Positions 719-20,000 of a stretch of DNA of 20,000 bases are shown piece after piece. The notes under the pieces are model-generated. The model saw nothing but the letters and a program-made list of their open reading frames with translations, ran no database searches and was not told where the DNA came from. The position numbers and the translations under genes were made by a program. This DNA comes from an uncultured virus (IMG/VR IMGVR_UViG_3300027963_000042) (Duplodnaviria > Heunggongvirae > Uroviricota > Caudoviricetes): the IMG/VR virus record IMGVR_UViG_3300027963_000042, positions 117,773 through 137,772 of that record; one strand, given 5' to 3'. Position 1 is the stretch's first letter. Each line of letters opens with the position of its first letter.

Positions 719-2440
719 TTATGCTAAACCACCAGCAGGTACGTTAACAAAGAATGTTAAGTACATAGTTTCAGGTAACATACCAGCTTCAACTAATGCG
801 TATCTAGATTTAACTGCGATCTTAGGTGACATTGTTCCTTCAGAGATAGTCTGAATAGACTCTGCCATCATGTAAGGCATAAATTTGATACCTGGTTCAT
901 CGTCTCCACCTTTTCTTCCAACTAATACTCTTGTATCACTGTAGCTCATGTTTTGATCAACATATACAGTCATACCAGCAAGCGAACCTACAGGGTATAA
1001 AGTACCATTGTTTTGAGTTAAAGTGTTAGAGAATGGTGCGAAAGTGAATTGAGAGATATCTTGAAGTGCACTTGCAACTGCAGCGTTTGTAACGATGAAG
1101 TTAGCAGGACCTCTTCTACCTCTGTTAGCTACCACGTTACCAGCTGCAAGAATTCTTGAGAATAATCTTCTTTGTAAAGTTGATAAGTTCTCATATCCTC
1201 CTGATGCAGGACCTGCAGGGATTACCATTGTAGATGTAGTGTCGTCTTTCTTAACGTAAGCAGCTGTAGTTCCAGCACCACCACCAATAACTAAGTTAAG
1301 GTTAAGGTTTTGGTTTTCTACGCTTAAGAATTGTACGTGGTTAGACCATCCTAAAGCAAATGATCTTGAAAGGATGTGTTTGTTGATTGCTTGAGAAACC
1401 TCATTAACCAATGCGTTCTCGATCATTGAAATAACATCGATACCGAATTGTTTGTTAAGATCCTGAATTTGCTCAGTTGTAACTGAAGCAGCAACTTGGA
1501 AAGTTTCAGCTTCTACGAACTTAGTGAAAGTCGAAAGACCCATTGAGTTGTAGTAAGTAGATTCTCCAACACCTCTTAACATTGGGTTGTAAGTTTTAGT
1601 ACCATCAACGTAAGGACCTTGGTAAGCATCGGTATTGTTAAATCCTGCTCCAGAGAAACCTTGGATATGATCTTCTAAAGCTTTAACTAATTGTGCAGTT
1701 CCAGCTGAGTTTTGAGTGTAGAATCCTGATCCACCAGCTCCAGTAACTACTTGTACAGGAGTACCGTTGAAGTAAGAAGCAACGTTAGAACCTGATGCTA
1801 AAGCAGTGATTTGGAAGATAGGGAAACCATCAATTCTTGATAGACCTACGAAAGTTAAAAGTAAAGTGCTGCTTACAGAAGCAGTAGCACCTACTGTGAA
1901 AGTTCCGGCAGTAGCACCAGTAGCACCAGGAGTACCTGCAGCAGTTTGGTAAACTGGGAATTTAATCATTGAAGGAGCAGAAGCTAACTGATCAGCAGCT
2001 GAACTAGCAGCAGCAGCAGCTACTTTACCACCTGCGTATACGTAGTCTAAGTAAGACAGAATACCAGTTGGACCTGACATAGGGATAACAGGAACGATAT
2101 CAAAACCTACAGTCTTCGCAGCTACCTGAATAGCTAATGGAAGTAATGAAGGGAATTTATCGCCTGAACCTTGCCAAGTGTTGTTGTAAAAACCAGCGTT
2201 TGCGCCAGTTGTTAAAGCAGCAGCACCACCAAATGATGCTCCTGGGAATGCTGGAGGAGCAACAGTACCCATACCGTTTACTACGCCTAGTGAGTTGTAT
2301 GCACCAGCAGATTCATTTAATGAATGGTAATGACAATATTTAGTCAACCATCCTTTTTTGTTCTCGTCTGTGATACCAGCCTTGCTCTCAATAAGAGGTG
2401 ACCAGGTTTCATAGATTTCTTGTTCGTTTATCAATTTCAT
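719..2440 (-). CDS. gp23: Major capsid protein, T4 gp23-like (573 aa)
   Basis: gp23-like motifs: GFDIVPVIPMSGPTGILSYLDYVY, TTEQIQDL...DV...IENALVNEVSQAINK, RRGPANFIVTN, G(S)LAGMTVYVD, FMPY, SPKIAVKSRYAL. Directly downstream of the prohead protease, followed by a strong terminator, codon usage biased as for a highly expressed gene. Confidence 0.92.
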   Translation of the reverse strand: MKLINEQEIYETWSPLIESKAGITDENKKGWLTKYCHYHSLNESAGAYNSLGVVNGMGTVAPPAFPGASFGGAAALTTGANAGFYNNTWQGSGDKFPSLLPLAIQVAAKTVGFDIVPVIPMSGPTGILSYLDYVYAGGKVAAAAASSAADQLASAPSMIKFPVYQTAAGTPGATGATAGTFTVGATASVSSTLLLTFVGLSRIDGFPIFQITALASGSNVASYFNGTPVQVVTGAGGSGFYTQNSAGTAQLVKALEDHIQGFSGAGFNNTDAYQGPYVDGTKTYNPMLRGVGESTYYNSMGLSTFTKFVEAETFQVAASVTTEQIQDLNKQFGIDVISMIENALVNEVSQAINKHILSRSFALGWSNHVQFLSVENQNLNLNLVIGGGAGTTAAYVKKDDTTSTMVIPAGPASGGYENLSTLQRRLFSRILAAGNVVANRGRRGPANFIVTNAAVASALQDISQFTFAPFSNTLTQNNGTLYPVGSLAGMTVYVDQNMSYSDTRVLVGRKGGDDEPGIKFMPYMMAESIQTISEGTMSPKIAVKSRYALVEAGMLPETMYLTFFVNVPAGGLA

Positions 2441-2463: not shown

Positions 2464-3726
2464 TTATCTTTTTGGAAATTTTTGCTCAAGTGCAGAAGCA
2501 ATATAATTCATATAATCTGAAGAATATCCTTGTGGTTTTGCAGTCTCGGCTACATTTTCACTCTCGTCAAGTTTTTGTACTCCAACTGTTTTAGCTCCAA
2601 GCTGACGTGTTGACCAGAAATTTTTGATCTGATAAGGTGTATCTAAATTATAGAAGTTTGACTGAGCAACAATTGATTGCTGATGTCCTTCAGATAAAGA
2701 TTCCCATACCGGAGCATATTCTGCTGGCATTTGGTCAATAAACTTAAGACCTGTTTTAGAGGTGTCTTCTGACTCGTTAAGAGTTGTTTCGTTAGCCTTT
2801 TGTGTTTCGGCTGATGTTCTTACTGCTTTAGCAGCTTCGTTGATATTTGAAGCGGTTTTTTGTGTCTTAACCGATTCTATTAATGAATCAATCTGTGAAG
2901 TTAGGTTCTCGTAGTTTCCAGCAAAGCCAGATTCGTTAAGACCTGCTTCTGCAGATAGATTTACATTTTCTATTAATGATTGCGTAGATCCTACAGGCAA
3001 TTTGTTAGCAACTGATTCTGCAATATACTCACTGTAAGCAATACCTTTGTTTAATTTCTCCGCAATGTATTCTGAATAATCTAATCCTTTATTAACATTC
3101 TCTGCTAAATAATCAGAGTACTCAATGTTTTTGTTTAGATTCTCTGCAATGTATTCAGTGTATTCGATTCCGTTGTTTAATTTTTCTGCAACGTACTCAG
3201 TGTAAGCAATACCTTTATCTAAGCTTTCGCCAAGATATTCTGAATAAGCAATACCTTTATCTACGTTTTCTGCTAGATACTCAGAATATTGAACGCTTTG
3301 ATCTAATTTTTCTGCTAGGTATTTAGAATACTCGATGTTCTTATCTACGCTCTCAGCTACATACTCTGAATAAGAAATAGATTTGTCAACATTCTCAGCT
3401 AGATATTTAGCATAAGAAATATTTTTGTCTAGATTTTCAGCTAAATATTTACTGTAGCTAATATTGCTATCTAAGTTTTCTGCAAGATATTCGCCATACT
3501 TAATAGAATCTTCTAAATTCTCAGCTAAATATTCTGCATATTTTTCAAGCTTAGCAACTCTTTCCTCAAGAGCATCATTAGCTTTACTTAAATCTTCGGA
3601 TTCGCTTAGCGATGTTTTTTGGGTTTTAGCCTCTGCGATAGCTGCTTTCATCGAATCCATTTCTTTTTTCAAGAATACTGAATACTGATTAAGCTCCTCC
3701 GCAGTAACAAATTCATTGTTCTCCAT
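2464..3726 (-). CDS. Putative nested in-frame scaffold protein (420 aa, starting at Met235 of the fusion)
   Basis: In-frame ATG at 3726 (MENNEFVTAEELNQY) preceded by A-rich leader ACAATAAAAATAAATCAGTCCTT and an internal GATATATA box at 3795-3802. Confidence 0.55.
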   Translation of the reverse strand: MENNEFVTAEELNQYSVFLKKEMDSMKAAIAEAKTQKTSLSESEDLSKANDALEERVAKLEKYAEYLAENLEDSIKYGEYLAENLDSNISYSKYLAENLDKNISYAKYLAENVDKSISYSEYVAESVDKNIEYSKYLAEKLDQSVQYSEYLAENVDKGIAYSEYLGESLDKGIAYTEYVAEKLNNGIEYTEYIAENLNKNIEYSDYLAENVNKGLDYSEYIAEKLNKGIAYSEYIAESVANKLPVGSTQSLIENVNLSAEAGLNESGFAGNYENLTSQIDSLIESVKTQKTASNINEAAKAVRTSAETQKANETTLNESEDTSKTGLKFIDQMPAEYAPVWESLSEGHQQSIVAQSNFYNLDTPYQIKNFWSTRQLGAKTVGVQKLDESENVAETAKPQGYSSDYMNYIASALEQKFPKR

Positions 3727-4428
3727 AAGGACTGATTTATTTTTATTGTCTGATTTATTCACGATTTTGTTGAATTCTTCGTTATTTTCAACTTTATATA
3801 TCTTCAGTGAAGATTCTTTTTCGATACCTAAAGATTCATTTAAGCATTCTAATGAATTTAATATGCTATTATTTTTCATTGCTTGAAAATATTGAGATGT
3901 AAACCCTTCACTCTCATATACTCTTTCAAGCTGAGCATCCTTAAATCCAGGATCTGCTACTAGATCATAGGTAAAAATTTTCTTAATCGCCACCTTCTTA
4001 TCGTTGCCAACGGATCCAGCTGCTCTTGAAGAAATAGAAAGAGGAACACCAGCATCTACTAGATTCTTAGCTATTCTACCCGCTGGGGTATCAAGAAGCT
4101 TAACCTTAATTTTAAGATCCCTATTGCTTTTGTCGTAGTTAAGATCTGTCACCATATGTGAGATATTCTTAAGTGATACGTCAAATTTCTCCGGATGATC
4201 TAATTCTCCAACTAGTCTATTCTGAGATATCTTATCTTTTAAATAATCTAGGTGAGGTAGATATTCGCTCTCTTCGTAAATTCTATTGTTGTTGTTCTCT
4301 TTACCGAAAACAGCAGCAATACCTTCCAGAACGTAATCATCTTTATCAGACTTTTTAGCTTCTAGAACGGAATTCTGTCTTTCGAGGATGAATACCATGT
4401 TTTCGTTTATTGATTGCAGTTGTGGCAT
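2464..4428 (-). CDS. gp21: Prohead protease (T4 gp21-like) fused to a coiled-coil scaffold/core region (gp22-like), 654 aa
   Basis: N-terminal ~170 aa carry gp21 motifs LEGIAAV..ENNNNRIY, GELDHP (catalytic His), LLDTPAG, ISSRAAGS (catalytic Ser), YDLVADPGF. The remainder is acidic coiled coil with a 14-aa repeat. Confidence 0.9.
   Translation of the reverse strand: MPQLQSINENMVFILERQNSVLEAKKSDKDDYVLEGIAAVFGKENNNNRIYEESEYLPHLDYLKDKISQNRLVGELDHPEKFDVSLKNISHMVTDLNYDKSNRDLKIKVKLLDTPAGRIAKNLVDAGVPLSISSRAAGSVGNDKKVAIKKIFTYDLVADPGFKDAQLERVYESEGFTSQYFQAMKNNSILNSLECLNESLGIEKESSLKIYKVENNEEFNKIVNKSDNKNKSVLMENNEFVTAEELNQYSVFLKKEMDSMKAAIAEAKTQKTSLSESEDLSKANDALEERVAKLEKYAEYLAENLEDSIKYGEYLAENLDSNISYSKYLAENLDKNISYAKYLAENVDKSISYSEYVAESVDKNIEYSKYLAEKLDQSVQYSEYLAENVDKGIAYSEYLGESLDKGIAYTEYVAEKLNNGIEYTEYIAENLNKNIEYSDYLAENVNKGLDYSEYIAEKLNKGIAYSEYIAESVANKLPVGSTQSLIENVNLSAEAGLNESGFAGNYENLTSQIDSLIESVKTQKTASNINEAAKAVRTSAETQKANETTLNESEDTSKTGLKFIDQMPAEYAPVWESLSEGHQQSIVAQSNFYNLDTPYQIKNFWSTRQLGAKTVGVQKLDESENVAETAKPQGYSSDYMNYIASALEQKFPKR
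3010..3540 (-). repeat. Degenerate 42-bp / 14-aa coding tandem repeat, 12 full units plus 1 partial
   Basis: Consensus Y(S/T/A)EY(L/I/V)AE(N/K/S)(L/V)(D/N)K(G/N/S)I(A/E/S), from YAEYLAENLEDSIK at 3540 to YSEYIAESV ending at 3010. Confidence 0.92.
3795..3802 (-). promoter_or_regulatory. Putative internal late promoter box GATATATA
   Basis: Exact match encoded in the K-I-Y-K codons of the protease-scaffold linker, 68 nt upstream of the in-frame ATG at 3726. Confidence 0.5.
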
Positions 4429-7961: not shown

Positions 7962-7984
7962 AGATGTTATTATAAACTGAATAT

Positions 7985-8692
7985 TTAGCTAGGGAAGCAT
8001 ACCTTTAGCATAACTTCCATTACTGTACTAACATCGAGTTCACAGTACGTTTTAATGTTTTCATAGTCTTTATCAACCCAGAATGAATCATTTACTTTGG
8101 ACCCGTCCATTATTCCCTTAGGTGATTCTATACCAAGAGAACAAGAAAGAAGATCAAGGCTTAAGTATTTTTGATGTGTCCAGCTACCGAAAGCAAACAC
8201 GTCTGATGTATCAACATACGGAATCTCCCATGGCTTCTTGTCCCAGATTCTAATATTTGCTGGAGGATTGATTCCATTATAGACCATTCTTTTACCTAAG
8301 CATGGAACGTCAAATCCTTTTATATTATGACCGCACAACTTCCAATTTTTTGAAGCTGCATTATTAAGCACCTTAGCTGTTTTAGTTAGAATGTCATGTT
8401 CATCATCTCCATAAAAAGATGCGAATCTCACCTCCCCAGTATCGGTAAATGATCCAAAGGAAACACACACAACACGAGAAAATTCAGGCTCTAATCCAGC
8501 CTTTTGTTTATAGATAGCTTCTGGGTCCTCAGCAGATAATGATGGATATGCTCCAAGATAATATGCTTCCCTCTTTTTCCATAGCTGCCATAAACGGGGA
8601 TTAGCATCATGTAATGTTTCGAGATCCTTATAAAGAGCTGCGGTCTCAACATCAAAATAAAGATATTTATAAATGTCTTCTTTTTTAAACAT
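7985..8692 (-). CDS. DEDDy 3'-5' exonuclease, stand-alone PolB-exonuclease-related family (235 aa)
   Basis: ExoI YFDVETA, ExoII GHNIKGFDVPCL, ExoIII TYCELDV, plus family-typical AGLEPEFSRVVCVSFG and SLDLL..LGIESPK..MDGSKV. Confidence 0.85.
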   Translation of the reverse strand: MFKKEDIYKYLYFDVETAALYKDLETLHDANPRLWQLWKKREAYYLGAYPSLSAEDPEAIYKQKAGLEPEFSRVVCVSFGSFTDTGEVRFASFYGDDEHDILTKTAKVLNNAASKNWKLCGHNIKGFDVPCLGKRMVYNGINPPANIRIWDKKPWEIPYVDTSDVFAFGSWTHQKYLSLDLLSCSLGIESPKGIMDGSKVNDSFWVDKDYENIKTYCELDVSTVMEVMLKVCFPS

Positions 8693-8706
8693 AATTTGGT
8701 TTTTTA

Positions 8707-8714
8707 CAAAGATA
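8707..8714 (-). promoter_or_regulatory. Bacteroidota housekeeping-sigma -7 element TATCTTTG (TAnnTTTG)
   Basis: Intergenic, 14 nt upstream of the exonuclease ATG (8692). Confidence 0.6.
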
Positions 8715-8737
8715 ATAGAATATCGCGGGAATAAAAA

Positions 8738-9637
8738 TTATTTCTTCGAATTTTTATTTATTACTATAGGGGGAAGAGATTTATGATCCATTCTGTATTT
8801 TAAGCATGCATCTTCTCTTGCTGGGGATTCTATGATTACGTCTATATCCAAGCCGAATGTTGGTATCCTTCTTTTGAGGTATTCTGATTGCTTTGGTATA
8901 GATGGTATTCCATAAGCATCACATTCTTGTGACTCTGAATGTATAAATACAGGTTTTTGCCCAGCCTTCCAGGTTGAGCAGGAAAGAAAAAGGGCTTCTC
9001 TTATACTAAGTCCACCATCATTAAACTGATGTGGCAATAGCCTAAAACATATTGGAATATTAGATCTGTAGTAAATACCAGATAGAAGATCAGTAACTGA
9101 GAAAAGACTGGGTTTGTCATCATTAACAACACAAAGTTTAGAAACGACTGTACTGTCCATCTCCGATAATCTCTCACAAAAGAGATCCATAGTATTTCTT
9201 CTATTTCCATAAGCTGATCCAACTCTAACCATTATAGACGGGTAGTTAATCCCAATTAAATCCAGAATGCTAGATAGTCTGGATAGTAACGATATTGTAG
9301 AGCTCTTAATATTATCTAATTGCGTACCTAAAAAATACTCCCTGTTTATACATAGAAATATTCTGAGATCATTTTTAGTTATTGCCGAATTTATCTCGTC
9401 GATTATATTCGATACAGCGGATTCCTCCTCTATTACTTCATTAAAGAAATTTGGTGAAAATTTAAAATTACATACATCTATACATGTGATCTCTATATCG
9501 AGCTCAAGATTTAATTTTATATTATCTCTAATTACACAGAGAAACTCCTCATATGAATTTATCGGGTAGTTTATATCATATGATTCAGAGTGTGGACCTA
9601 TATAAGATAATTTCGGTGGCGTTTGTCCTAATATCAT
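8738..9637 (-). CDS. UV-damage endonuclease (UvsE/UVDE)-like TIM-barrel protein, probably catalytically inactive (299 aa)
   Basis: UvsE-like segments VGSAYGNR..TMDLFCERL, KLCVVNDDKPSLFSVTDL, IPICF..HQFNDGGLS..EAL..STW, PVFIHSES, DIDVIIES; most metal-ligand positions appear substituted. Confidence 0.7.
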   Translation of the reverse strand: MILGQTPPKLSYIGPHSESYDINYPINSYEEFLCVIRDNIKLNLELDIEITCIDVCNFKFSPNFFNEVIEEESAVSNIIDEINSAITKNDLRIFLCINREYFLGTQLDNIKSSTISLLSRLSSILDLIGINYPSIMVRVGSAYGNRRNTMDLFCERLSEMDSTVVSKLCVVNDDKPSLFSVTDLLSGIYYRSNIPICFRLLPHQFNDGGLSIREALFLSCSTWKAGQKPVFIHSESQECDAYGIPSIPKQSEYLKRRIPTFGLDIDVIIESPAREDACLKYRMDHKSLPPIVINKNSKK

Positions 9638-9687
9638 TTAATCTTTTTAAGATTGTACTGATAAAAGTATTTTTAGTTTCTGTTAAA

Positions 9688-10176
9688 TTAGCCCCCGGTT
9701 GTTTCCAGTCCTAACTCGGACGAATTATAAACAGTTTTAGAATTATATCCTTTATCAACGATTTCGCTGTTTTTGTATTTGGTTTTTGTGGAAATGTTAC
9801 CGTGTTCACCACCTTCTGCAAACTTAACTGTATTACCCTTAATCTCTATAACTCTTTCAGTCTTTTTACCTTTATTATAAACTTGAATGAAATATCTATA
9901 GCCTATATTATTAGGATTTCTGAATGCTCTAACAATAACACCAGTTACTTTGTCCTTTGAATCTAACGGTTCAGCTATTACCACATCACCTATCTTATAT
10001 TCGTCGCCCTTTACATTGGTTGGCATATTGGGGTCAGTACCGACAGAAATTGATAAATCGCTAAAAGGTTTATAGTTTATTTTTAGGACGCCATTAGCTC
10101 CTCCATAACCATAGGTATCACCAAAAGCTCCGCTTTCTCCACCAAAGTCCTCGTTTATTGATTTAATATACTTCAT
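9688..10176 (-). CDS. Hypothetical protein with SH3/KOW-like beta segment, probable virion protein (162 aa; start revised from 10206 to 10176)
   Basis: ATG at 10176 gives MKYIKSINE, removes the overlap with the upstream gene and lies 5 nt after GATAAATA (10182-10189). EYKIGDVVIAEP..KVTGVIVR is KOW/SH3-like. Confidence 0.65.
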   Translation of the reverse strand: MKYIKSINEDFGGESGAFGDTYGYGGANGVLKINYKPFSDLSISVGTDPNMPTNVKGDEYKIGDVVIAEPLDSKDKVTGVIVRAFRNPNNIGYRYFIQVYNKGKKTERVIEIKGNTVKFAEGGEHGNISTKTKYKNSEIVDKGYNSKTVYNSSELGLETTGG

Positions 10177-10180
10177 TATG

Positions 10181-10738
10181 CTATTTATCTTCGGAGGCCT
10201 CGCCATTCTGAAGCGCTAGAAGATCTTTTATTTTTGTAGCTAATTCAAAATTCTCTGTATCGATTGCTTTTTTAAGCATTGCTTCCAGTCTGATAATATC
10301 GGATTCATCCTTTGTTATATCATTTTTTTCTGTATTGCCTATTACATGAATTCTTTGTGGCGAATAAATAACTTCCAAGCTAGAATCAAATCTTATATTT
10401 AATCCCGCTTTTATATCACCTCTAGAAGGTTCATCGTCTTCATCATCATAGTCGTCATCACTTAATTCTACCCATTCCCCATTAACCCAGAATATCATCC
10501 AAGGTCCATAGAAAAGCTCGGCCACATCATTATCGATAGCATAGTTAAGCAACATCTTCAGCTCAGATTTAATGTCATTTTTATTTAAAGTATCTGAAAA
10601 TACCTTTCTCTTAATACCAGGGATTACTGATGTTCCCTCGCCTACCCCTATCTTAAAGCATTTATTAACCCCGATAATAGAGTCCCAATCCAAGCTGGAA
10701 ATAACCTTGTCAATTAGTTTATTATTCGGTTTCTTCAT
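10181..10738 (-). CDS. Hypothetical protein with acidic loop and C-terminal UVR (UvrB/UvrC) coiled-coil motif (185 aa)
   Basis: C-terminal IIRLEAMLKKAIDTENFELATKIKDLL matches the UVR pattern L..AI..E.FE.A..I.D.L; acidic run SDDDYDDEDDE. Confidence 0.65.
   Translation of the reverse strand: MKKPNNKLIDKVISSLDWDSIIGVNKCFKIGVGEGTSVIPGIKRKVFSDTLNKNDIKSELKMLLNYAIDNDVAELFYGPWMIFWVNGEWVELSDDDYDDEDDEPSRGDIKAGLNIRFDSSLEVIYSPQRIHVIGNTEKNDITKDESDIIRLEAMLKKAIDTENFELATKIKDLLALQNGEASEDK
10182..10189 (-). promoter_or_regulatory. Putative late promoter variant GATAAATA
   Basis: One mismatch from both GATATATA and T4 TATAAATA; overlaps the stop codon of the upstream gene, 5 nt before ATG 10176. Confidence 0.45.
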
Positions 10739-10751
10739 TTCTTATATATTT

Positions 10752-11171
10752 CTATTTTTGAAGCCCTGCCTGGTCTGATATATCAGATACCCAAGAAGCA
10801 TATTTAGCTGGATAAAAATTCTTAATAGTTTCTATGTCTCTTTTGGATACCCTATATTTATCTCTTATGAAAGATTCTATTAATTCTGACGCTTTAACCT
10901 CCTCTATCTTAATTCCTTCAGATTTCTTAGTCTTTGTATATAACCAAACTGGGGGTTTGGAAAACCTTGCTGAAAGAGTTCCGTGCCACCAATCTACCAC
11001 CGGTGCGGGTACGATTTTCATCTTATTGAACTGATTTGCTTGAACGGGGAATTGTATAGACATTATCCTGTTGATCATAAAAAAGTTTCTAGACTTATCT
11101 ATTTTACCAACAGCTTTCCATTCGTTTGCTTTGTTATTAAAAATAAGTTTTATAATATCAAATAATTGCAT
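10752..11171 (-). CDS. Probable clamp loader small subunit, T4 gp62-like (139 aa)
   Basis: FFMINRIMS..ANQFN..W.Y.K.KK..I..KY.VSKR pattern, size, and proximity to the gp44-like gene. Confidence 0.55.
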   Translation of the reverse strand: MQLFDIIKLIFNNKANEWKAVGKIDKSRNFFMINRIMSIQFPVQANQFNKMKIVPAPVVDWWHGTLSARFSKPPVWLYTKTKKSEGIKIEEVKASELIESFIRDKYRVSKRDIETIKNFYPAKYASWVSDISDQAGLQK

Positions 11172-11177
11172 AGTGTA

Positions 11178-12326
11178 TTATTTTAAGAAATTTTCAAATG
11201 GATCAAATCCTTTAGGCTGGACTGGGGTAACTATCCATTCTGTTCCGTCTAATATTTTTATTCTATCCAGTGTTACTGATTTTTTTTCTAGCTTAATCCC
11301 TCTTGTTGTTTCCATTTTACATGAGAAAGAAACATTCTCCGGTATCACAATGTTATCTAACCACATAAGTTTGGTATTTCTTAAAAAATTATTCTTTACC
11401 TTTATCCTATTTTCTGTGCTATCAACTCCCTTGCATATCTTTAGAATTAATGGGGATATCCAATTTAAAAAATCATCATCACCAACTAATGATTTTATCG
11501 ATAAATTTTTCCATTCCGATTCGATTAGTAAATCATAGATTTTCTCTGCACTCTTTGGGGTAAACCTAGTAATCTTTCCTGCGTTTTCAAATTCCCATAC
11601 GCTGGGTACAGAATCACCCTTGTCACCTATTAATATCTTATTGAATATAAACGGAAAGCTGTCTATCTCTTCTATATCAACTTTCTTTAAGAAATCTTTG
11701 AGTCTTTCTTTCTCGGGAGAAATAGTAGATCCCATATTAAATATGCTTACCTCACTTTTTGTTTCGTCTAGCCAATTTTTCTTCCATCCTTTAGGTACCG
11801 AAAGTACATTATTTTTAGAATTATTGTTCCAGGTTGCTGTCCAGATATCAGGCCCTTTCATTCTAGCAAGCTGATGTAAATCTTTATCACCACTTATTAT
11901 AATACAGCTTTCCCCTATATCGTTGAATTTTTCTGACCAATATAAAAGAAGATCATCGCCTTCTGCTCCCTCCACTTTAGAAAAAATAAATCCCATTTTT
12001 TCTAGGTGAGTTCCAAACGCCTGCATGAGATCAAAGAAAATTGACCAGTCTACATTTTCATCCTTTACCCTTCCCGATTTATATCCGCCATCTTCAATTT
12101 CTACGTCCTTTCTCCAACTTCTACTATCTGATGCAAAAACTAATCTTCCCCCTATAGGTAGCATCTTCAGTGATGAGCATAAATCAGTAGCAATTTTTCT
12201 AATAAACATAGATTGATCTGATTTGCTTTTCAGTACTTTCCCTGGATCTACGTTAGATCCATATCCTGCAAATACCCCAAATGTTTTATGGAATATGTAG
12301 TTGCCATCTATCAGTATATTAATCAT
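11178..12326 (-). CDS. rnh: 5'-3' exonuclease / T4 RNase H-like flap nuclease (382 aa)
   Basis: Motifs ILIDGN, D.RSWRK, YKSGR, AEGDD, ISGDKDLHQL, LIGDKGDSVP. Confidence 0.88.
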   Translation of the reverse strand: MINILIDGNYIFHKTFGVFAGYGSNVDPGKVLKSKSDQSMFIRKIATDLCSSLKMLPIGGRLVFASDSRSWRKDVEIEDGGYKSGRVKDENVDWSIFFDLMQAFGTHLEKMGFIFSKVEGAEGDDLLLYWSEKFNDIGESCIIISGDKDLHQLARMKGPDIWTATWNNNSKNNVLSVPKGWKKNWLDETKSEVSIFNMGSTISPEKERLKDFLKKVDIEEIDSFPFIFNKILIGDKGDSVPSVWEFENAGKITRFTPKSAEKIYDLLIESEWKNLSIKSLVGDDDFLNWISPLILKICKGVDSTENRIKVKNNFLRNTKLMWLDNIVIPENVSFSCKMETTRGIKLEKKSVTLDRIKILDGTEWIVTPVQPKGFDPFENFLK

Positions 12327-12846
12327 TTCCTCCTCCTATTTTTTCTAATACCTCATCTATTGTGAAGTTTGGGTTTGTTATTATACAGTCAAAATCAGAA
12401 AAGTTTTTAAAATCTTCCCTGTCTGCTTGAATTCTTCTCTCCGATTTATCTGCGTCGTTTCTTCCTGCTAGTCTTTCCCTTAATGTATGTTCGTCAATAT
12501 CGATGAACATTATAAGTGACTCTTTTCTATCTTCAGGTTTAAGTTTTTCTATTCCAGAAGGGGTCATTATAAAAAGATTAGCTCTATAGAATTCATCAAG
12601 AGACGTTCCATAGAACCAGCTATTAAATTCGACCCATTCATAAAATTCGCCCCTCCCAATCATTTCCGTAGCCTTATCGTAAGTAATAAAGTAATAATCT
12701 ACACCATTGAATTCACCCTCTCTTGGAGGTCTAGATGTATGCGAAACTGAATATATTAGATCTTTCCCCTTTAGAAGTTTAACTAAATGATCCTTCCCAG
12801 ATCCTCCTTTTCCTGCTATTATTATTCTTCTCCAACTATCTTTCAT
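12319..12846 (-). CDS. gmk: Guanylate kinase (175 aa)
   Basis: P-loop GKGGSGKD, GMP-binding signature VSHTSRPPREGEFNGVDYYF, WFYGT, LRERLAGR. Confidence 0.88.
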   Translation of the reverse strand: MKDSWRRIIIAGKGGSGKDHLVKLLKGKDLIYSVSHTSRPPREGEFNGVDYYFITYDKATEMIGRGEFYEWVEFNSWFYGTSLDEFYRANLFIMTPSGIEKLKPEDRKESLIMFIDIDEHTLRERLAGRNDADKSERRIQADREDFKNFSDFDCIITNPNFTIDEVLEKIGGGND

Positions 12847-12847
12847 A

Positions 12848-13792
12848 TCAATCGGTTAGTTTCTGTATTTGAAACACGAGTGATAATAAAGAAACAATAG
12901 GGTCTATAACTTGAGTCCTTTGAGCTTGATGTTCTGCAACCAATACGATGACAGCAGGAATTATCTTCTTTAATTCAGGTTTATTATTGATTATCCAATT
13001 TATAAACTCCTCGCCAAGTGCAGACATTACCTCATCAACCTTTCCGTTATATTCACCTACTATATTTTGATAATTTTTAACAGGATCTTTCGATGTTGTT
13101 ATGAGGGTATATAAATCCTCGTATGACCAGCCAAGCTCATTTATTTTTGCAGAATCTACTTTCTTTATACCTTCAATCATCCATGTTTGAACCTTGTTAA
13201 GAGCTGATCTAAAATCAGGATAATAATTCTTCTGAAACTCAACAAGAGATTCGGAATCTATTTCAATCCCAATTTTTCCAAGAATCAACCCTATTCTTTT
13301 ATTCCATTCTGCTTTTAATTCCTCCTCCTCGTTACTATTTACAGGGTTGAAATCAATAAGTTCAAAACGGCTTTGGATTGCATCAGGAACCTTATTGATA
13401 TAGTTACATGTAGCAATGAATCTAGCATTGCCAGCGAACTTTTCGACTGTTCCCCTTAGTGCTTTATAGAATTGGTCGGAAGCTCCGTCAAACTCATCTA
13501 AAATAACTATTTTTTTAGATGATTTTCCATCCATTACAGAAATGGTAGAACAGAAGTCATTTATTTTTACTCTGATAGTTTCTACCGAGCTCTCGTCGGA
13601 GACATTTATAAATATACTAGGATAGCCGTTAGCTAAGATTTTGGCAAGAGTTGTTTTGCCACATCCAGGAGGTCCGCTTAAAAGTACGTTATGACCTAGG
13701 CCATTCGTAAAAAGATTCGATATCCTATGAGGGAGAATCATATGCTTAAGCTCCTTTGGTCTAAGCTTTTCTGTTAAAAGTTCCTGTATCAT
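12848..13792 (-). CDS. gp44: Clamp loader AAA+ ATPase subunit, T4 gp44/RFC-like (314 aa)
   Basis: EKLRP, Walker A GPPGCGKTT, Walker B IVILDEFD, FIATCNY, arginine finger IQSRF, YPDFRSALN. Confidence 0.92.
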   Translation of the reverse strand: MIQELLTEKLRPKELKHMILPHRISNLFTNGLGHNVLLSGPPGCGKTTLAKILANGYPSIFINVSDESSVETIRVKINDFCSTISVMDGKSSKKIVILDEFDGASDQFYKALRGTVEKFAGNARFIATCNYINKVPDAIQSRFELIDFNPVNSNEEEELKAEWNKRIGLILGKIGIEIDSESLVEFQKNYYPDFRSALNKVQTWMIEGIKKVDSAKINELGWSYEDLYTLITTSKDPVKNYQNIVGEYNGKVDEVMSALGEEFINWIINNKPELKKIIPAVIVLVAEHQAQRTQVIDPIVSLLSLVFQIQKLTD

Positions 13793-13825
13793 ATTGTTTC
13801 TATAGTTAAAAAATGAAGTTGTTTC

Positions 13826-15172
13826 TTAAAATTTCGAAGAAAGATCGTCTGAAGAATCTTTGTCCTGTCTAATGTCTACAAAACGTGGTAAGAAAAGAGA
13901 TCTATTCTCGTGCTTATCTGTAATAGTGACGTTATATAAAACTGCTGCGATTTTTCCAATGTGTGAATCGGGATCTTTACTTAAAGATTGTAAATCAAGA
14001 TCAGTGAATCCTGATCCAACTTTAACATTAAGTGTCTTCGAAGCATCAGTCATAATAAATCCACCGATATAACCTTCTCTTTTACCTTCACCAGGATACC
14101 ATCCTGTAATTTCAAGGTCACATTCATTAACCTCTTTGAACTTAACCCAGGATTTGGACCTTTTGCATTCATAAGCACCGTTGTCTTTACAGATAACACC
14201 CTCGCCGCCAATATCTACGATTTTTTTATAAATTGCAGGGACTTCGCCAGGATCAGAAAGCTCCCACATCTGGGCAAGCTTAACTGGTGATTCATCGGAT
14301 AATCCATTGGTAATTTTTTCTAAAGTGTGTCTCCTATCAATATACTCTAAAACACCAACTCCTTTATCTAAGGTTACAAGTTCATCGAAATCAAAAACAT
14401 TAAATAAAAATCCACTCTCTATATTAACACTGGCTGTTCCCTTTAGTATTTGTGTCACCTTACCGCTAACTGACTTTCTATTTAAGTCTGTTAATTCGCC
14501 GTCAAAAAACCAATTACCAGATAAACCTGAGTTTATCATACAAAGTTTTAAATCGAAAGTTATCTTAGGGAAGCAAGAGGCATTAAGCTCATTGAATGCC
14601 CGGGTAAAATATGTTATCTCACCATTTTTATATACTGCAATCACACGGACGCCATCATATTTTTCCTCACAATAGATTTTGTCCCATTTATCGATTGTTG
14701 AATGATCGTCGGTAGCTAGCATTAAGGAAGGATCTGGGATTAGCTCTCTAGAAAGTGCCTTATTAATTAGCTTTGCTCCAATCCCTATGTTCATTCTCTT
14801 GGTTAATATCTTCATAAGAGTCTTGCGGAGTTCTTCGTCTTCGCTTTCAACCTCTGATAATTTAGAGGATAATAATGTTTCCGCTCTAGATCTTAGCGAA
14901 TCGTTTGCAGCGGGTGCTTTCTTTAAATCTTCAACCAAATCTTTAAACTCCTCCCATAAATTAGGATTATGCTCTTTACACTGGGGTGGGAAATTTAGCT
15001 TATGCAGCTTAGTAGTAACAAAAGGATTAAAGCATGTATCCAGGATATACTCCATTTGAGGATTTATTGACTCCTTAATTAATACCTGTTTTGCTTTTTG
15101 CGAGCCATCACCTGTTAGAGATTCTACTACCTTTAGAATCTTAATACTGTTTACCATTTCATCAAATTTCAT
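13826..15172 (-). CDS. lig: ATP-dependent DNA ligase, T4 gp30-like (448 aa)
   Basis: Motif I EEKYDGVR, III FDGEL, IIIa FNVFD, IV EGVICK, V WVKFK, VGSGFT, VI LFLPRFVDIRQDK. Confidence 0.95.
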   Translation of the reverse strand: MKFDEMVNSIKILKVVESLTGDGSQKAKQVLIKESINPQMEYILDTCFNPFVTTKLHKLNFPPQCKEHNPNLWEEFKDLVEDLKKAPAANDSLRSRAETLLSSKLSEVESEDEELRKTLMKILTKRMNIGIGAKLINKALSRELIPDPSLMLATDDHSTIDKWDKIYCEEKYDGVRVIAVYKNGEITYFTRAFNELNASCFPKITFDLKLCMINSGLSGNWFFDGELTDLNRKSVSGKVTQILKGTASVNIESGFLFNVFDFDELVTLDKGVGVLEYIDRRHTLEKITNGLSDESPVKLAQMWELSDPGEVPAIYKKIVDIGGEGVICKDNGAYECKRSKSWVKFKEVNECDLEITGWYPGEGKREGYIGGFIMTDASKTLNVKVGSGFTDLDLQSLSKDPDSHIGKIAAVLYNVTITDKHENRSLFLPRFVDIRQDKDSSDDLSSKF

Positions 15173-15189
15173 ATATTGTATATTTTCTA

Positions 15190-15197
15190 CAAATATA
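15190..15197 (-). promoter_or_regulatory. Bacteroidota housekeeping-sigma -7 element TATATTTG (TAnnTTTG)
   Basis: Intergenic, 17 nt upstream of the ligase ATG (15172); same context (TTAnnTTTGTA) as the site at 8707-8714. Confidence 0.6.
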
Positions 15198-15393
15198 ACG
15201 AATGATAACGGTTAAAAAAAATTATTCCTGATAATTTCGGAAAGAAAATTAGTACAATGGCGAAGGGTATTTAATATCTTCTATTTCACATTTTAACCAT
15301 ACTGTATTGAGTCATACGGTATATTGAAGGTGTTATGCTGATATAATGAGTAGAGTCGCTTATAACTGACTATAAGCTGTATTAAGAAAATAC

Positions 15394-17007
15394 CTATAAG
15401 GTTACCTCAGGTGCTTCTTCTTCCGCACCTTCAGCTGGAGCAGCTTCTCCTTCAGCGGCTTCAGCTTTAGGAGCTTCTTTTGCCTCTTTTTTCTTGTAAG
15501 ATTCGTTAGCTGCTAATTGATCTGGTGTTAATCCAAGGAATCTTTGAATAAGATAATCATTATCAAAATATGCTTTTTCCTCTTCCCCTGCTTTAACCTT
15601 AAGTTCTCCTAGGCCTTTGATGAATTCACTTCTTTTAGAAAAATTGGTTAATTGAACCATTTCTTCAAATTCACTTTCCCTATGAAAATCTAATCCAAGA
15701 TTTGTTTTAAAGCTTCTATCCCTAGATAGTTCAGGAAAATCTAAACACATCTGAATGTATAAAGGTTTTACTAATATCTCTTGAAATATCGATCTTAATC
15801 TTCTTAGAAATTTCTCAAATCTTATCTCATCTCTTTCCAATTGATCTATTCCTGTTTGATAGTTAACTGGACCAGAAGCTCTGGATGCAAACCTAGCATA
15901 AGGTATCTTTGAATCCATTTTAAGCTTGTTATAGAAATAAAGAACATTATCCATAACGTTGAAATCAGGTCCGCTTGGATTAAGTGACTCAATTTGAGGT
16001 GATTGTCCATTCTGTTCCGGGAATAGATAGTTTTTATAAAACTGAACCTTAGGTCTTCCGTTAACCGTTAATTCTCCCGATGCGTCATTAATTGAGATAT
16101 CTTCCTTATAGTTTGACATTAGCTGTCCTAAAGTTTGCATCGCTTTTTGAGGTGATTGGCTTCCGGTAGGTATAATAAATTTAAGTCTATAAGAAGCATT
16201 CATAACATTCCAGATTATTCTGGAATTTTCCATGATTCTAAGGATGTTATACGATCTAACTAATCTCTCAATATAGCTAACCCTAGATACACTGTTTCCT
16301 TTAGCATAAGAGATATAGACAATCTGCTCGTTTGTAAGCTTCCTGGTCATTTGTGGATTCTTAGGATACTGAATCCAAAATTGCTGATATTCATTCTCTC
16401 CGATTTTTTCAACCGCTGGCTGAAGTGAAGAAGCATCCAATTCTTTGAATCCTATTATCTCCTTACCCTTATTATCATAGATAATCTCGAAAGCAAGAAA
16501 TCCATCTATTAGGAATTGTTTAAAATACTGCCATCCTAGTATAGAATTCTGAAATCCAAAAACGTTATAAATCCTGTTATAGTGATCGGCTATTTTATCC
16601 TTTACCTTTTCCTTAATATCTAGATTAACGAAAGAAGGATTAGCAAAATAATTTCTATCGTCGTATGTGATAGATTCGTCTGTAATAGTATCAAGTATAA
16701 ATTCAATTTCTCCATTTAGTGAAAATTTTCTTAAAAAGTTTCTTTTTTCTATATAATCCTTATCGAAATAAGCAATATATTTTCTTACCTTGGTATCCTG
16801 ATAGGAAGCTGTCCAATAGAAAGCATCATCCTGGGTAAATCCAGTCCCCTGCTGAGAGAAAGCTCCTTCTGTTTTACCTATGGCCTGAGAGTTTCTAACG
16901 ACCATATCATCATACTGCATACCAAACTTGGAAACCTTTCCTAGGTTCCTTATTATGTTGCCTAGAGCTGACTCGTTAGGTCTTAAAAAATCTAAAAATC
17001 CTGCCAT
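15394..17007 (-). CDS. gp20: Portal vertex protein, T4 gp20-like, paralog B (537 aa)
   Basis: gp20-like motifs EIEFILDTITDESI, QFLIDG.L.FEII, SYIER..RSYN.LR.MENS.II, NY.FP, YF.NKL..SKIP..RF, RDEIRFEKF..RLR..F. Confidence 0.88.
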   Translation of the reverse strand: MAGFLDFLRPNESALGNIIRNLGKVSKFGMQYDDMVVRNSQAIGKTEGAFSQQGTGFTQDDAFYWTASYQDTKVRKYIAYFDKDYIEKRNFLRKFSLNGEIEFILDTITDESITYDDRNYFANPSFVNLDIKEKVKDKIADHYNRIYNVFGFQNSILGWQYFKQFLIDGFLAFEIIYDNKGKEIIGFKELDASSLQPAVEKIGENEYQQFWIQYPKNPQMTRKLTNEQIVYISYAKGNSVSRVSYIERLVRSYNILRIMENSRIIWNVMNASYRLKFIIPTGSQSPQKAMQTLGQLMSNYKEDISINDASGELTVNGRPKVQFYKNYLFPEQNGQSPQIESLNPSGPDFNVMDNVLYFYNKLKMDSKIPYARFASRASGPVNYQTGIDQLERDEIRFEKFLRRLRSIFQEILVKPLYIQMCLDFPELSRDRSFKTNLGLDFHRESEFEEMVQLTNFSKRSEFIKGLGELKVKAGEEEKAYFDNDYLIQRFLGLTPDQLAANESYKKKEAKEAPKAEAAEGEAAPAEGAEEEAPEVTL

Positions 17008-17016
17008 TTCTTATTT

Positions 17017-18627
17017 TTATAATGTTACTTGGGTTGATTTTTCTTCTCCCTCTTCACCCTTCTCTCCGCCTTCTTTATCCTCTGACTTTTTCTTTTCCTT
17101 CGCTTTTCTATCCATGACCTCTCTATTTGCAATGATATCTTGTCTAGACATACCAAGGAATGTTTCGATAAGAAATGCAGTAGAGAAATAAGGCTTTTCC
17201 TCATCACCAACTAATCCGGACATAGCAGTAACAGATTCTTTTCTTTTGTTGATCACGTCCATTTCCTGATTAATCTTAAATGGATTATCAGAAAAGTAGT
17301 CAAGTCCCATTTGACTTTTAAACATGAAATCTTTTTCTAAATGTGTATATTTCTTAGCCATCTGAATCCAGAGTGGTTTGACTAATATCTCTTGGAATAC
17401 AGATCTTAATCTTTCGATAAATTTGGCAAACCTTATCTCCTCCTTGTCCAATCCTTCTGCACCGTTAGAGTAGGGAGAAGTATTACCCCCGTCGGGTGTA
17501 TGAAATCTAGAGGGCGGAACTTTCGATTCCTGGACAAACTTATCAAAGAAATATGATAAAGGTGCGGGATCATTAAGATTTGGTCCTTCTGTATTAACTG
17601 GCTCGATAGTAGGTGTACCGTTAACCCCAGAAGGCATCAGATAGTTCTTATAGAACTGTATCTTAGGTTTACCGTCTACCAGTAATTCTCCGCTATCATC
17701 ATTTAGCTGAATGTCTTCCTTATAAATACTCATAAGTTCTCCTAAAGTCTGCATACCTTTTTGAGGAGATTTAGTACCAATAGGAACTGTCATCTTTAGT
17801 CTGAATGAAGAATTCATTACTGACCATATAATTCTGGTATATTCTATAATCCTTAGAATATTATAGGGCCTAATTAATCTCTCAATGTAACTTACTCTAG
17901 ATATAGAGTTTCCCTTAGCGTATGAAATGTAAATTATTTGTGGATCGTAAAGTACTCTTCTCCTTTTTGGGTCCTGAGGAAATTGTGTCCAGGTATTAAT
18001 AAAGGTACCGTCTATTTGTTTCTCAACCGATGGTACAATAGTAACAGAATCTAATTCTTTGAATCCTACGATATACTTACCGTCATCATCATATATGATC
18101 TCAAAGCATAAAAATCCATCAACTAAAAACTGTCTGAAGTATTGCCATCCTGTTATATCATCACTGAATCCCCATATATCATAAAGCTTCTTGTAATTCT
18201 CATATAACTCATCTTTAAGTTTCTCATTGATATTAGTTATATCAATAAAATCAGGGTATGCAAAAAAGTTAGCCGGATCATAAGATATAGCCTCATCGCA
18301 TATAGTATCTAGTACCCATTCTATTTCGGGATTAAGCGAGAATTTTCTTAAATAATCTCTTTTACCCTTATAATCTTTATCGAAATATGAAATGAATTGT
18401 CTTGTAGTAATATCCTGCTTCGCTAATGTCCAAAGCATGCTTTCATCTTCTACATTAGCCTTATTCTTGTTTAAGAATGCAGCTTCAGTTACACCAACTG
18501 CTTGTGAATTTCTGATGACCATGTCATCATATTTCATACCAAAAGTGCTTAGCTTTCTCACCGATTCCCTAATCCTCTGTATAACAGGAGATTGGGATGG
18601 ATCATTATTATCTACAAAACCGGCCAT
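17017..18627 (-). CDS. gp20: Portal vertex protein, T4 gp20-like, paralog A (536 aa)
   Basis: Same motif set (PEIEWVLDTICDEAI, QFLVDG, SYIERLIRPYNILRIIE, SKVPPSRF, EEIRFAKFIERLRSVF); colinear with paralog B over its full length. Confidence 0.88.
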   Translation of the reverse strand: MAGFVDNNDPSQSPVIQRIRESVRKLSTFGMKYDDMVIRNSQAVGVTEAAFLNKNKANVEDESMLWTLAKQDITTRQFISYFDKDYKGKRDYLRKFSLNPEIEWVLDTICDEAISYDPANFFAYPDFIDITNINEKLKDELYENYKKLYDIWGFSDDITGWQYFRQFLVDGFLCFEIIYDDDGKYIVGFKELDSVTIVPSVEKQIDGTFINTWTQFPQDPKRRRVLYDPQIIYISYAKGNSISRVSYIERLIRPYNILRIIEYTRIIWSVMNSSFRLKMTVPIGTKSPQKGMQTLGELMSIYKEDIQLNDDSGELLVDGKPKIQFYKNYLMPSGVNGTPTIEPVNTEGPNLNDPAPLSYFFDKFVQESKVPPSRFHTPDGGNTSPYSNGAEGLDKEEIRFAKFIERLRSVFQEILVKPLWIQMAKKYTHLEKDFMFKSQMGLDYFSDNPFKINQEMDVINKRKESVTAMSGLVGDEEKPYFSTAFLIETFLGMSRQDIIANREVMDRKAKEKKKSEDKEGGEKGEEGEEKSTQVTL

Positions 18628-18660
18628 TTAGTATATTTTTAGTTATTCTAGTTACGAAAC

Positions 18661-19266
18661 TCAAATTAATTTCGATTGGTATTCCTTATATATCCCTGCT
18701 ATATCTAAGCCCTCTACTTGAGATTTTCTAAGATATGGTATTTTATACCAGTCATCTAGATCTAAAATGCTGATTTCCCTTATGAATGTTGTCTTAAATC
18801 CGAAGACTGAATACTCATATCCCGTACCCAAAAGAATTTTTTTAAGATTTATATTTGTTAAAGGCAGTGGGGTTATTGCTCCACCTTTTGTGTAATGATT
18901 TTGGTTTTTCTCTATGATGCTAGTAAAGTTATCATAGATCTTACCTAATATTTTCACTCTATATTCGGGAGGAGTTACTATTAAATCTATACCGGAGAGT
19001 ATAATCCCATTTTCTTTTGTCTGGTAAGAATCAGTACATAGCACTATGGGATTTCTGTCTATAAACTTTCTTTTCTCTGTGACCTCGCTGTCTGTAGGAT
19101 AGGGAAAGGAGTATATCTCGCCAGGGATAAACGGGGGTGAGAATTTCTTCTCCGATTTCCCGCCTTGGAAATACTTTTCTGTAAATATATCATCGGTATT
19201 CCTTACAAGATCTGCAATACTGGGAAATTCTTTTTTATATTCTAATACTAATTCTGAATAGGTCAT
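18661..19266 (-). CDS. DNA end protector protein, T4 gp2-like (201 aa)
   Basis: PFIPGEIYSFPY...FIDRNPIVL...GIDL...P..R..IL resembles the gp2 pattern PG..Y.F.Y...D..P.....G.NL; ATGA-coupled to the gp4-like gene. Confidence 0.55.
   Translation of the reverse strand: MTYSELVLEYKKEFPSIADLVRNTDDIFTEKYFQGGKSEKKFSPPFIPGEIYSFPYPTDSEVTEKRKFIDRNPIVLCTDSYQTKENGIILSGIDLIVTPPEYRVKILGKIYDNFTSIIEKNQNHYTKGGAITPLPLTNINLKKILLGTGYEYSVFGFKTTFIREISILDLDDWYKIPYLRKSQVEGLDIAGIYKEYQSKLI
18687..18694 (-). promoter_or_regulatory. Putative late promoter box GATATATA for the portal pair
   Basis: In the 3' end of the gp2-like gene, 59 nt upstream of the portal A ATG (18627). Confidence 0.55.
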
Positions 19267-19748
19267 CTACTTTTAAATAGAAATTTTTCATCGACCACAC
19301 CGAATCTAAACCCTCTTTTTTCTGCCCATTCCTTTGCTGCTTTGAATTTTGCCTGATTTGTTATCCATACCTGCATACTGTGATTATATGACTTTAACTT
19401 AGCAAGAGTCATAGCTCCTTCGTAGATGGGCTTTTGTGTTTGTCTTTCGGGTTTTATTTCGATAATCCACTCTTGCTCTTCTTCAGATTCTTTGAGTACC
19501 TTTATATAGAAATCCACATTATAATCATGTTCTTTCTTATCCAGTGGATTGAAATACTTAATTGCTATAGGTTCGGAACTCCATTTTAATATAGAATCAT
19601 TGGTATCGCAATAAACACAAAAACGATATTCCCAGGAAGACCTGTATATTATATTATGGAGGTCACCAATATACTTTTCTGGCTTAGATGGCTCAAATTT
19701 TCCAGATTTATAATCACCATTAGGCTTTACCTTCTTTATATCGGTCAT
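19263..19748 (-). CDS. gp4: Head completion nuclease, T4 gp4-like (TnsA-type PD-(D/E)xK fold), 161 aa
   Basis: GKF.P.KPEKYIGD, IIYRSSWE, WSSE, H.Y.VDF, IEIKP..QT, N.AKF.AA..W. Confidence 0.88.
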   Translation of the reverse strand: MTDIKKVKPNGDYKSGKFEPSKPEKYIGDLHNIIYRSSWEYRFCVYCDTNDSILKWSSEPIAIKYFNPLDKKEHDYNVDFYIKVLKESEEEQEWIIEIKPERQTQKPIYEGAMTLAKLKSYNHSMQVWITNQAKFKAAKEWAEKRGFRFGVVDEKFLFKSR

Positions 19749-19759
19749 TCGGATTAGGA

Positions 19760-20000
19760 TTAAACGTTATAAGTGTTATCGTCACCAGTTATATAACTGA
19801 ATGGTATCATCTTAGGACTTTTCGGAGGATGCAGTTTCTTCCATCCTTTTGCAAATCCATTCTTAGCTATTTGGGTAAAATAAGCAAATGGATTGTTAGA
19901 TTTTTCCGGATTGAATCTGTCCCAATATTTACAAAGATCCTCCATAGCAAATGCCATGCAATCCTCTTTGTCTTCCGGATCCTTATAAGCCATTTTTTTA
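19760..20000 (-). CDS. gp55: Late transcription sigma factor, T4 gp55-like; 5' end outside the window
   Basis: EDLCKYWDRFNPEKSNNPFAYFTQIAKNGF matches the gp55 F.P..S.NPFAY.TQI..N.F motif. The frame is open from ATG 19993 to the window edge, so the true start is probably upstream. Confidence 0.75.
   Translation of the reverse strand, partial: KKMAYKDPEDKEDCMAFAMEDLCKYWDRFNPEKSNNPFAYFTQIAKNGFAKGWKKLHPPKSPKMIPFSYITGDDNTYNV

Follow-up and report, generated by a model that had tools for sequence, protein, structure and literature searches.

An uncultured tailed virus (Duplodnaviria; Heunggongvirae; Uroviricota; Caudoviricetes; IMG/VR record IMGVR_UViG_3300027963_000042) carries two genes, A and B, for a portal protein of the T4 gp20 family, which suggests a portal ring built from two kinds of subunit. 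The genes lie in tandem in the 20,000-nucleotide (nt) stretch analysed here (positions 117,773 to 137,772 of the record; hereafter the window). The T4-type portal itself is known; what is new is its encoding by two genes. In all tailed-phage and herpesvirus structures known to us, a single gene supplies the twelve identical subunits of the portal ring. Models of head assembly, packaging-motor docking and DNA gating rest on this homomeric portal. In the full-text literature searched, neither a phage with two portal genes nor a heteromeric phage portal turned up in any paper, and the accessible part of the Goslar structure paper mentions paralogues for other proteins only.

We favour the reading that A and B co-assemble into one mixed dodecameric portal and give it a probability of about one half; co-expression, co-assembly, stoichiometry and functional gain are all inferred. 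The pair consists of the following features.

17017..18627, minus strand: portal paralogue A, 536 amino acids (aa; P0001), T4 gp20 family (PF07230, phrog_213, Foldseek)
17008..17016, minus strand: A/B spacer of 9 nt (TAA aaataagaa ATG), separating the A stop codon from the B start codon
15394..17007, minus strand: portal paralogue B, 537 aa (P0002), T4 gp20 family (PF07230, phrog_213, Foldseek)

Both genes encode T4-type portal proteins

BLASTP aligned A and B with 257 of 504 residues identical (51%), 72% positives and 6 gaps (E = 0.0), a similarity far beyond chance. Both proteins start with MAGF and end with VTL, and neither has an internal stop. Against the Portal_T4 profile PF07230, whose curated cut-off is 22.9 bits, A scored 191.2 bits (3.5e-56, profile positions 7-431 of 433) and B scored 229.8 bits (7e-68, positions 6-433 of 433). 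PHROG 213, 'portal protein', was matched by A and B alike. A preliminary description of the window, made from the sequence alone, had reported two intact, diverged gp20-like open reading frames (ORFs) of 536 and 537 aa, 9 nt apart, and the end-to-end profile matches and the 51% identity bear this out. The only solved structures matched by sequence were T4-type portal chains (three distinct sequences; 3ja7, 6uzc, 9lu6), with phmmer E-values in PDB against 3ja7 of 2.8e-24 for B and 1.8e-11 for A. B is slightly closer than A to T4 and to every outgroup. In public records A and B are each named 'hypothetical protein', and a megablast search of the portal pair against the phage collection gave no match.

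AlphaFold2 monomer models were built on 84-row alignments. They are of low confidence, with a mean pLDDT (predicted local distance difference test score) of 56.7 for A and 57.3 for B, and with stem and clip below 50 in both. In Foldseek, the top matches of the A model were T4 gp20 chains (best 9mkb, E 1.8e-13, probability 1.0), and the top match of the B model was also T4 gp20 (9lu7, E 5.4e-17, probability 1.0). Below the T4 gp20 chains, both models matched other phage portals only; the TM-scores (template modelling scores) were just 0.37-0.49. According to this modeling, A and B are both predicted to adopt the portal fold. The order of wing, stem, clip, tunnel loop and crown in T4 gp20 (PF07230; PDB 3JA7, 6UZC, 9MKB, 9LU6/9LU7) can be aligned with A and B, and the identity of T4 gp20 to them is low, 15-20% in structural alignments.

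The tandem pair is conserved and old

A scan of viral contigs gave 318 relatives, of which the best 80, ranging from 100% to 67% identity to A, were kept. In 79 of these 80 best relatives, an A-like gene is followed by a directly adjacent B-like gene on the same strand; in the lone exception (L036) the contig stops ~60 nt past A. The names of the related contigs bear 69 different dataset numbers by our own count. Both ORFs are complete in 69 loci, and there the A/B spacer is 1-23 nt long, most commonly 9 nt (23 loci) or 4 nt (21 loci). The window is the final 20 kb of a linear viral contig of 137,772 bases that is judged ~50% complete. A near-identical relative, G001, has 348,582 bases and is judged 100% complete; its A and B are 99.8% and 100% identical to the window copies, and a profile search of the whole record found exactly two portal genes.

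The A/B junction is bridged by contigs from three metatranscriptome runs (X1 16752-17072, X3 16858-17082, X4 16915-17102). All four RNA runs consist of assembled contigs, from which depth, strand and transcript ends are not readable. The libraries may contain DNA, so that the bridging supports the junction, not transcription. Runs in which the clade occurs are of freshwater origin. A contig of X3 that apparently joins 16111 to 17757 was set aside, since it matches by just 18 and 31 bases at homologous conserved sites of B and A and probably belongs to a relative's portal gene.

A quick maximum-likelihood tree (IQ-TREE, LG+G4) was computed for 53 unique A/B pairs and four outgroups (LR756500, LR756501, LR756502 and Tenacibaculum phage PTm1). 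The A clade and the B clade are each monophyletic (Shimodaira-Hasegawa-like approximate likelihood ratio test, SH-aLRT, 100 for either clade), and a support of 98 places the outgroups outside them; the long outgroup branches meet, which makes the branching order among the outgroups unsure. Because A and B form separate clades with single-copy outgroups outside, the tree points to one old tandem duplication at the base of the clade.

In the phage collection, 1395 records match A at 1397 places. The one two-place record examined, LR756501, owes its second match to a weak 101-aa fragment elsewhere in the genome, and two full-length T4-type portals were seen in no genome among the 1395 matching records. 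The nearest records in that collection, LR756500, LR756501, LR756502 and the Lak phage Lak-A1, have one full-length Portal_T4 gene each, with a portal identity to A/B of 42-46% for LR756500 and 33-37% for the other three. They too are giant genomes (462-735 kb), and the LR756500 portal has the same MAGF N-terminus as A and B. Viral contigs that resemble LR756500 and have at least 4 kb of flank (L114, L116) likewise carry a single portal copy.

The two copies are equally constrained

The stem branches of the two clades are 0.505 (A) and 0.533 (B), and the tree lengths within the clades are 5.68 and 5.84. Patristic distances in A and B are correlated with r = 0.958 and a slope of 0.93. The ratio of nonsynonymous to synonymous substitution rates (dN/dS, Nei-Gojobori) has a median of 0.021 for A and 0.018 for B and maxima of 0.045 and 0.040, with 25 of 1378 pairs usable. 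By these sequence measures both copies are kept by selection, and SYMMETRICALLY, under equal purifying constraint. The preliminary description had proposed an old duplication kept by selection, and the 79 of 80 loci, the two clades and a dN/dS of ~0.02 in both copies agree with it.

Distances were also correlated between six genes of the neighbourhood, A and B included, across 37 loci (666 pairs). A and B correlate most strongly, at 0.970 (others 0.77-0.93). When the signal of the neighbours was removed, the partial correlation of A and B was 0.72, against -0.05 to 0.59 for other gene pairs. This suggests that A and B share rate changes.

A and B differ in the channel lining and subunit contacts

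All copies were aligned with T4 gp20 from the T4 record, using domain limits from the accessible part of Sun et al. 2015 (PMC4493910). The two proteins share 75% of residues in stem helix a5, 59% in the clip, 56-57% in the wing and 46% at the N-terminus, and their identity falls to 37% in the crown and 27% in both stem a7 and the tunnel loop. Divergence had been placed by eye at the N-terminus, after QFYKNYL and in the C-terminal ~100 aa, a pattern that these values bear out. We counted as a fixed difference any site that is at least 90% conserved in each clade and has a residue differing between the clades. There are 34 in total, 24 of them in the 147 stem, clip and tunnel-loop columns and 10 in the other 398 (Fisher p = 5e-8). 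The concentration holds among columns conserved in both clades (24/86 vs 10/120, p = 2.5e-4). In the first wing segment, 2 of 162 columns carry a fixed difference.

In the channel loop (T4 350-359), A and B differ at N350/D348, L351/F349 and D353/V351, and just past it, at the start of stem helix a7, at P356/N354 and L357/V355. At the place of T4 R338, a residue needed for packaging, A has S and B has E. An S-P-Q-K motif in the clip helix is common to A and B. G284, S287 and K290 (A numbering) do not vary across the alignment of 84 A and B sequences, and K290 of A (K288 of B) aligns with T4 K296. T4 R295, also in the clip helix, is Q in both A and B.

The accessible parts of the T4 structure papers give these elements distinct roles. 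Neighbouring subunits meet at the clip beta-sheet and the tunnel loops, and the DNA is faced or touched by the clip and by the channel and tunnel loops (PMC4493910). It is the wing that touches the capsid, and the clip helix is the docking site for gp17 and, later, for the C-terminal arm of gp13, with K296 contacting both gp17 and gp13 (PMC4493910, PMC12929587). Since the wing and the docking helix are common to both, the two copies appear to be built for the same capsid site and docking helix. A and B would thus fit the same place in the head and, as far as can be read from the alignment, differ as two fixed variants in the channel lining and in the parts that touch neighbouring subunits.

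The C-terminal tails

The tails are ~38 residues long in both proteins, with a mean net charge of -3.0 in A and -5.0 in B and a K/R content of 26% and 15%, respectively. The preliminary description had set a K/E/G-rich tail in A against an acidic A/E/P-rich tail in B; the richness of A in K/R stood, and acidity is a trait of both, each tail being net acidic on average. T4 gp20 also has an acidic C-terminal stretch with a terminal F, and most A and B copies are likewise acidic with a hydrophobic end. Of the 53 copies in each clade, 37 in A and 52 in B carry a terminal [T/K][L/I/F] motif, and in none of the 53 pairs do both members lack it.

In the last 6 residues, A and B are alike at 3.58/6 positions within a genome and at 2.45/6 between genomes (permutation p 2e-4, phylogeny ignored). 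Recent gene conversion was rejected as a general cause of this likeness, because codon identity at positions with the same amino acid is 0.58 in the tail and 0.50 in the core, so that the tail hardly exceeds the core. The likeness may come from older conversion or from co-selection by a shared partner.

Expression of the pair

Three features flank the pair and bear on its expression.

18661..19266, minus strand: gene upstream of A, with a weak match to a T4 gp2-type DNA end protector (phrog_429 at 1.8e-4)
18628..18660, minus strand: spacer of 33 nt 5' of A, holding CTAGAATAAC
15173..15393, minus strand: non-coding stretch of 221 nt between B and the DNA ligase gene, at the end of the portal unit

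The A/B spacer is too short for a promoter, so A and B form one unit and presumably are expressed together. We conclude from this arrangement that A and B are probably made together from one unit. Sigma-70 and terminator scans gave sites no more numerous than in shuffled sequence, and no terminator-like site was called on the minus strand in 15173..15393.

A late box at ~18687 had been proposed before the pair. It reads TATATAAG, a near-match to the T4 late consensus TATAAATA, and proved to sit within upstream coding sequence, in the last codons of the gp2-like gene (..GIYKEYQSKLI*), where its conservation in relatives tracks the peptide. The sequence GGGATATATAAGGAATATCAATCGAAATTAA, at 18661-18700 on the minus strand, is strikingly conserved at the homologous place in 48 distinct relatives and encodes GIYKEYQSKLI. 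A promoter may overlap the end of the gp2-like gene. An exact TATAAATA is absent from the minus strand near the portal pair (the window has 4 matches in total, with 3.4 expected). In relatives without a gp2-like gene upstream of A, the spacer carries CGATATATAAATATC, which includes TATAAATA. In addition, by eye, many of the 48 distinct upstream sequences show, some 20-25 nt ahead of the A start codon, a box like TAGAAT or TATAAATA. The spacer 18628..18660 is a possible late promoter site.

One terminase, one sheath and a doubled tail tube

In an all-against-all comparison of the 404 ORFs of G001, the portal pair is the strongest paralogue pair. No paralogue of the terminase large subunit or of the tail sheath was found in this complete genome. 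A portal of another kind would therefore have neither a packaging motor nor a sheath of its own. The order in G001 is terminase, sheath, two tube genes and, ~12 kb on, the portal pair. The two tube genes adjoin the one sheath gene; the contig of the window ends before that point.

G001 locus L112, 12002-12577 and 12595-13149, minus strand: tail-tube-like genes of 191 and 184 aa, 55-57% identical (phrog_32623, phrog_45)

The single-portal relatives LR756500, LR756501, LR756502 and G002 have one tail-tube gene each. Portal and tube are thus both doubled in the clade and single outside it. Each is one event, which makes this a coincidence worth noting, not a statistic.

Gene neighbourhood

The long ORFs of the window are all on the minus strand. 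The portal pair lies among head morphogenesis genes, with gp55-, gp4- and gp2-like genes upstream; the protease and capsid genes follow on that strand, 11-15 kb downstream.

19760..19993, minus strand: gp55-like late sigma factor gene (phrog_234 at 2e-12)
19263..19748, minus strand: gp4-like head completion or head closure protein with a TnsA-like nuclease fold (phrog_218 2.6e-47; PF08722 1.5e-19)
7113-15172, minus strand: DNA-metabolism block of ligase, clamp loader, guanylate kinase, 5'-3' exonuclease, UvdE-like endonuclease and PolB-exo-like 3'-5' exonuclease
4487-7105, minus strand: ORF of 872 aa, between the protease gene and the phrog_36119 gene
2464..4428, minus strand: prohead protease (gp21-like) fused to a repeat-rich scaffold-like region (phrog_207 at 1.2e-37)
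719..2440, minus strand: major capsid protein, gp23-like (PF07068 1.9e-40; phrog_28442, phrog_138)

The gp55-like ORF begins 7 bases from the end of the window and of the contig, and an alternative open-ended frame runs off that end. Its homologue in the complete genome has 119 aa, and the gene may be cut at the contig end. The DNA-metabolism block separates the portal pair from the protease and capsid genes, whereas in T4 genes 20, 67, 68 and 21-23 are contiguous. The gp4-like and gp2-like head-completion genes next to the portal pair are a feature in common with T4.

Within the protease gene, a tandem repeat with a 42-nt period at 3017-3451 encodes about ten 14-residue units with a pattern like YSEYLAENLDKxIx, and the repeat region resembles a built-in scaffold or core domain. 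The protease homologue of Tenacibaculum phage PTm1 is annotated 'prohead core scaffolding protein and protease'. The 872-aa ORF has no match in Pfam or PHROG; judged by eye, it has an apparently hydrophobic, Gly/Ala-rich middle and acidic flanks, and its product could be a head-internal or membrane-associated protein.

Further paralogues are found in G001. A short capsid-like gene of 296 aa (L102, 9352-10242, minus strand; phrog_138 at 5e-8) is 26% identical to the 597-aa major capsid protein (L111, 589-2382, minus strand) and may encode a gp24-like vertex protein. A five-member paralogue family (248-352 aa, 45-63% identical; phrog_21719, phrog_7816) is of unknown function; four members lie within 9 kb (L101, 4203-12960, plus strand) and the fifth at L106, 14194-14940, minus strand.

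Discussion

The favoured reading would run as follows. A gp20-type portal gene was duplicated once in tandem, long ago, and both copies were kept throughout a large clade of giant phages. A and B would be expressed together from one unit, and their products would join one mixed dodecamer at a single portal vertex. The capsid-facing wing, and the clip helix that in T4 binds the terminase and the neck, would be the same in both subunits, whereas the channel loop, the tunnel loop and parts of the clip would come in two fixed versions. With A and B alternating (A6B6), the ring would be six-fold and match the neck and tail. We offer an obligate alternation of this kind only tentatively, and would sooner bet against it. 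If true, the break from 12-fold to 6-fold symmetry, which in the T4 neck lies at gp13/gp14, would move into the portal, and channel and tunnel loops of two sets would alternate along the wall of the DNA channel. Such a ring would have arisen with the doubled tail-tube gene, and the whole DNA conduit would be made of paralogue pairs.

A mixed dodecamer is the most economical reading because A and B share the wing and the docking helix. In addition, the two genes are retained together and equally constrained throughout the clade, as for a heteromeric ring of paralogues. Several points weigh against it. Contact between A and B, or their presence in one particle, is deduced from sequence, and the monomer models, with stem and clip at a pLDDT below 50, leave no interface readable. 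Fixed differences at inter-subunit elements are equally expected if the interfaces diverged so as to keep A-only and B-only rings apart. The dN/dS values rest on 25 of 1378 pairs, the remainder being saturated or too close, and the mirror-tree correlation uses non-independent pairs and can be produced by shared constraint alone. The pattern of the terminal motif amounts to ~3 changes, 2 of them among the A copies and 1 among the B copies, and so few events cannot carry an argument. An RNA-library contig that spans two genes need not reflect a single transcript. The collections searched held no isolate, virion proteome or structure of the clade. Prediction of a complex of A (70-510) and B (68-510) on 41-row genome-matched alignments gave scores of 0.02 and 0.04 against a mark of 0.32; carried out without controls, it counts neither way.

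The same fixed differences could insulate homomers from each other, and A and B might then form two separate homo-dodecamers with different jobs, which we regard as unlikely though a serious contender. The two rings could belong to different kinds of particle, or one of them could form another special vertex or be stacked inside so as to extend the channel; alternatively, one could serve prohead initiation and the other packaging or ejection. All portal elements are kept in both proteins, as separate rings would need, and with the tail-tube gene doubled as well, two variants of the whole DNA conduit are conceivable. The complete genome, however, has a single terminase large subunit and a single sheath gene, and with the same wing and clip helix A and B would be rivals for one capsid site and one set of partners. 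The genes are strictly adjacent, with short spacers in all 69 complete loci, as fits subunits that are made together. Moreover, head assembly initiated by the portal is generally taken to mean one portal per head. In T4 the portal does start head assembly, as stated in the accessible part of PMC4493910, and this too argues against two rings in one particle.

Portal proteins trigger bacterial immune sensors, and so do tail-tube proteins in the case of DSR2. Both of these trigger types are doubled in the clade, and one copy could thus be the working portal and the other a non-virion accessory, either an Avs4-type decoy or sponge for portal-sensing immunity or an assembly chaperone. We consider this quite improbable. 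A protein freed from portal function should show relaxation, yet the dN/dS values (0.021 vs 0.018) and branch lengths of A and B are equal. Clip helix, channel loop, tunnel loop, wing and crown are all kept in both and conserved within each clade, and both genes lie in the head-gene unit with spacers of 1-23 nt that leave no room for a separate B promoter. The decoy option of the preliminary description is thereby disfavoured, the constraint being equal on every portal element including the clip helix. The position of the window at the end of a linear, half-complete contig might also raise the suspicion of a chimeric assembly of two related phages, or of a recent redundant duplicate that is being lost; we give this practically no weight. 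The same arrangement stands in 79 of the 80 best relatives, including the 348,582-base genome judged 100% complete, and the junction is bridged in three further runs. A protein identity of 51% is too low for an assembler to mis-join the genes, and both copies are free of frameshifts and stops, with a dN/dS of ~0.02. Artefact and decaying duplicate are refuted by the relatives, G001, the tree and dN/dS. The checks that the preliminary description had proposed, namely a profile search against the T4 gp20 family, phylogeny with synteny, and dN/dS, gave portal proteins for both copies, two conserved clades and equal constraint; a non-portal fold, decay, absence in relatives and a chimeric junction, which it had named as fatal, did not turn up.

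If the two subunits mix, the clade would offer the first heteromeric portal; if they form rings of their own, it would offer the first phage with two different portal rings. Both outcomes bear on the handling of symmetry mismatches at the portal vertex and on the building of giant capsids.

Comparison with known systems

T4 has one gene 20, in its annotated head-gene region, and a homo-dodecameric ring; here there are two paralogues at 51% identity. T4 also offers a comparable case in gp23 and gp24, where a structural gene was duplicated and subfunctionalised within one particle. The two differ in that gp23 and gp24 occupy different positions of a lattice, whereas a portal ring has one type of position unless its symmetry is lowered.

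Hetero-oligomeric rings that stem from the duplicated subunit of a homo-oligomer include the archaeal alpha/beta thermosome, the proteasome and the proteolipid ring of the V-ATPase. Their co-assembly has been shown experimentally, whereas for the A/B portal we only infer it. The pattern is otherwise alike: in those rings, too, an ancient duplicate of the ring subunit was kept, both copies are equally constrained, and the differences fall at the elements that contact the neighbouring subunits.

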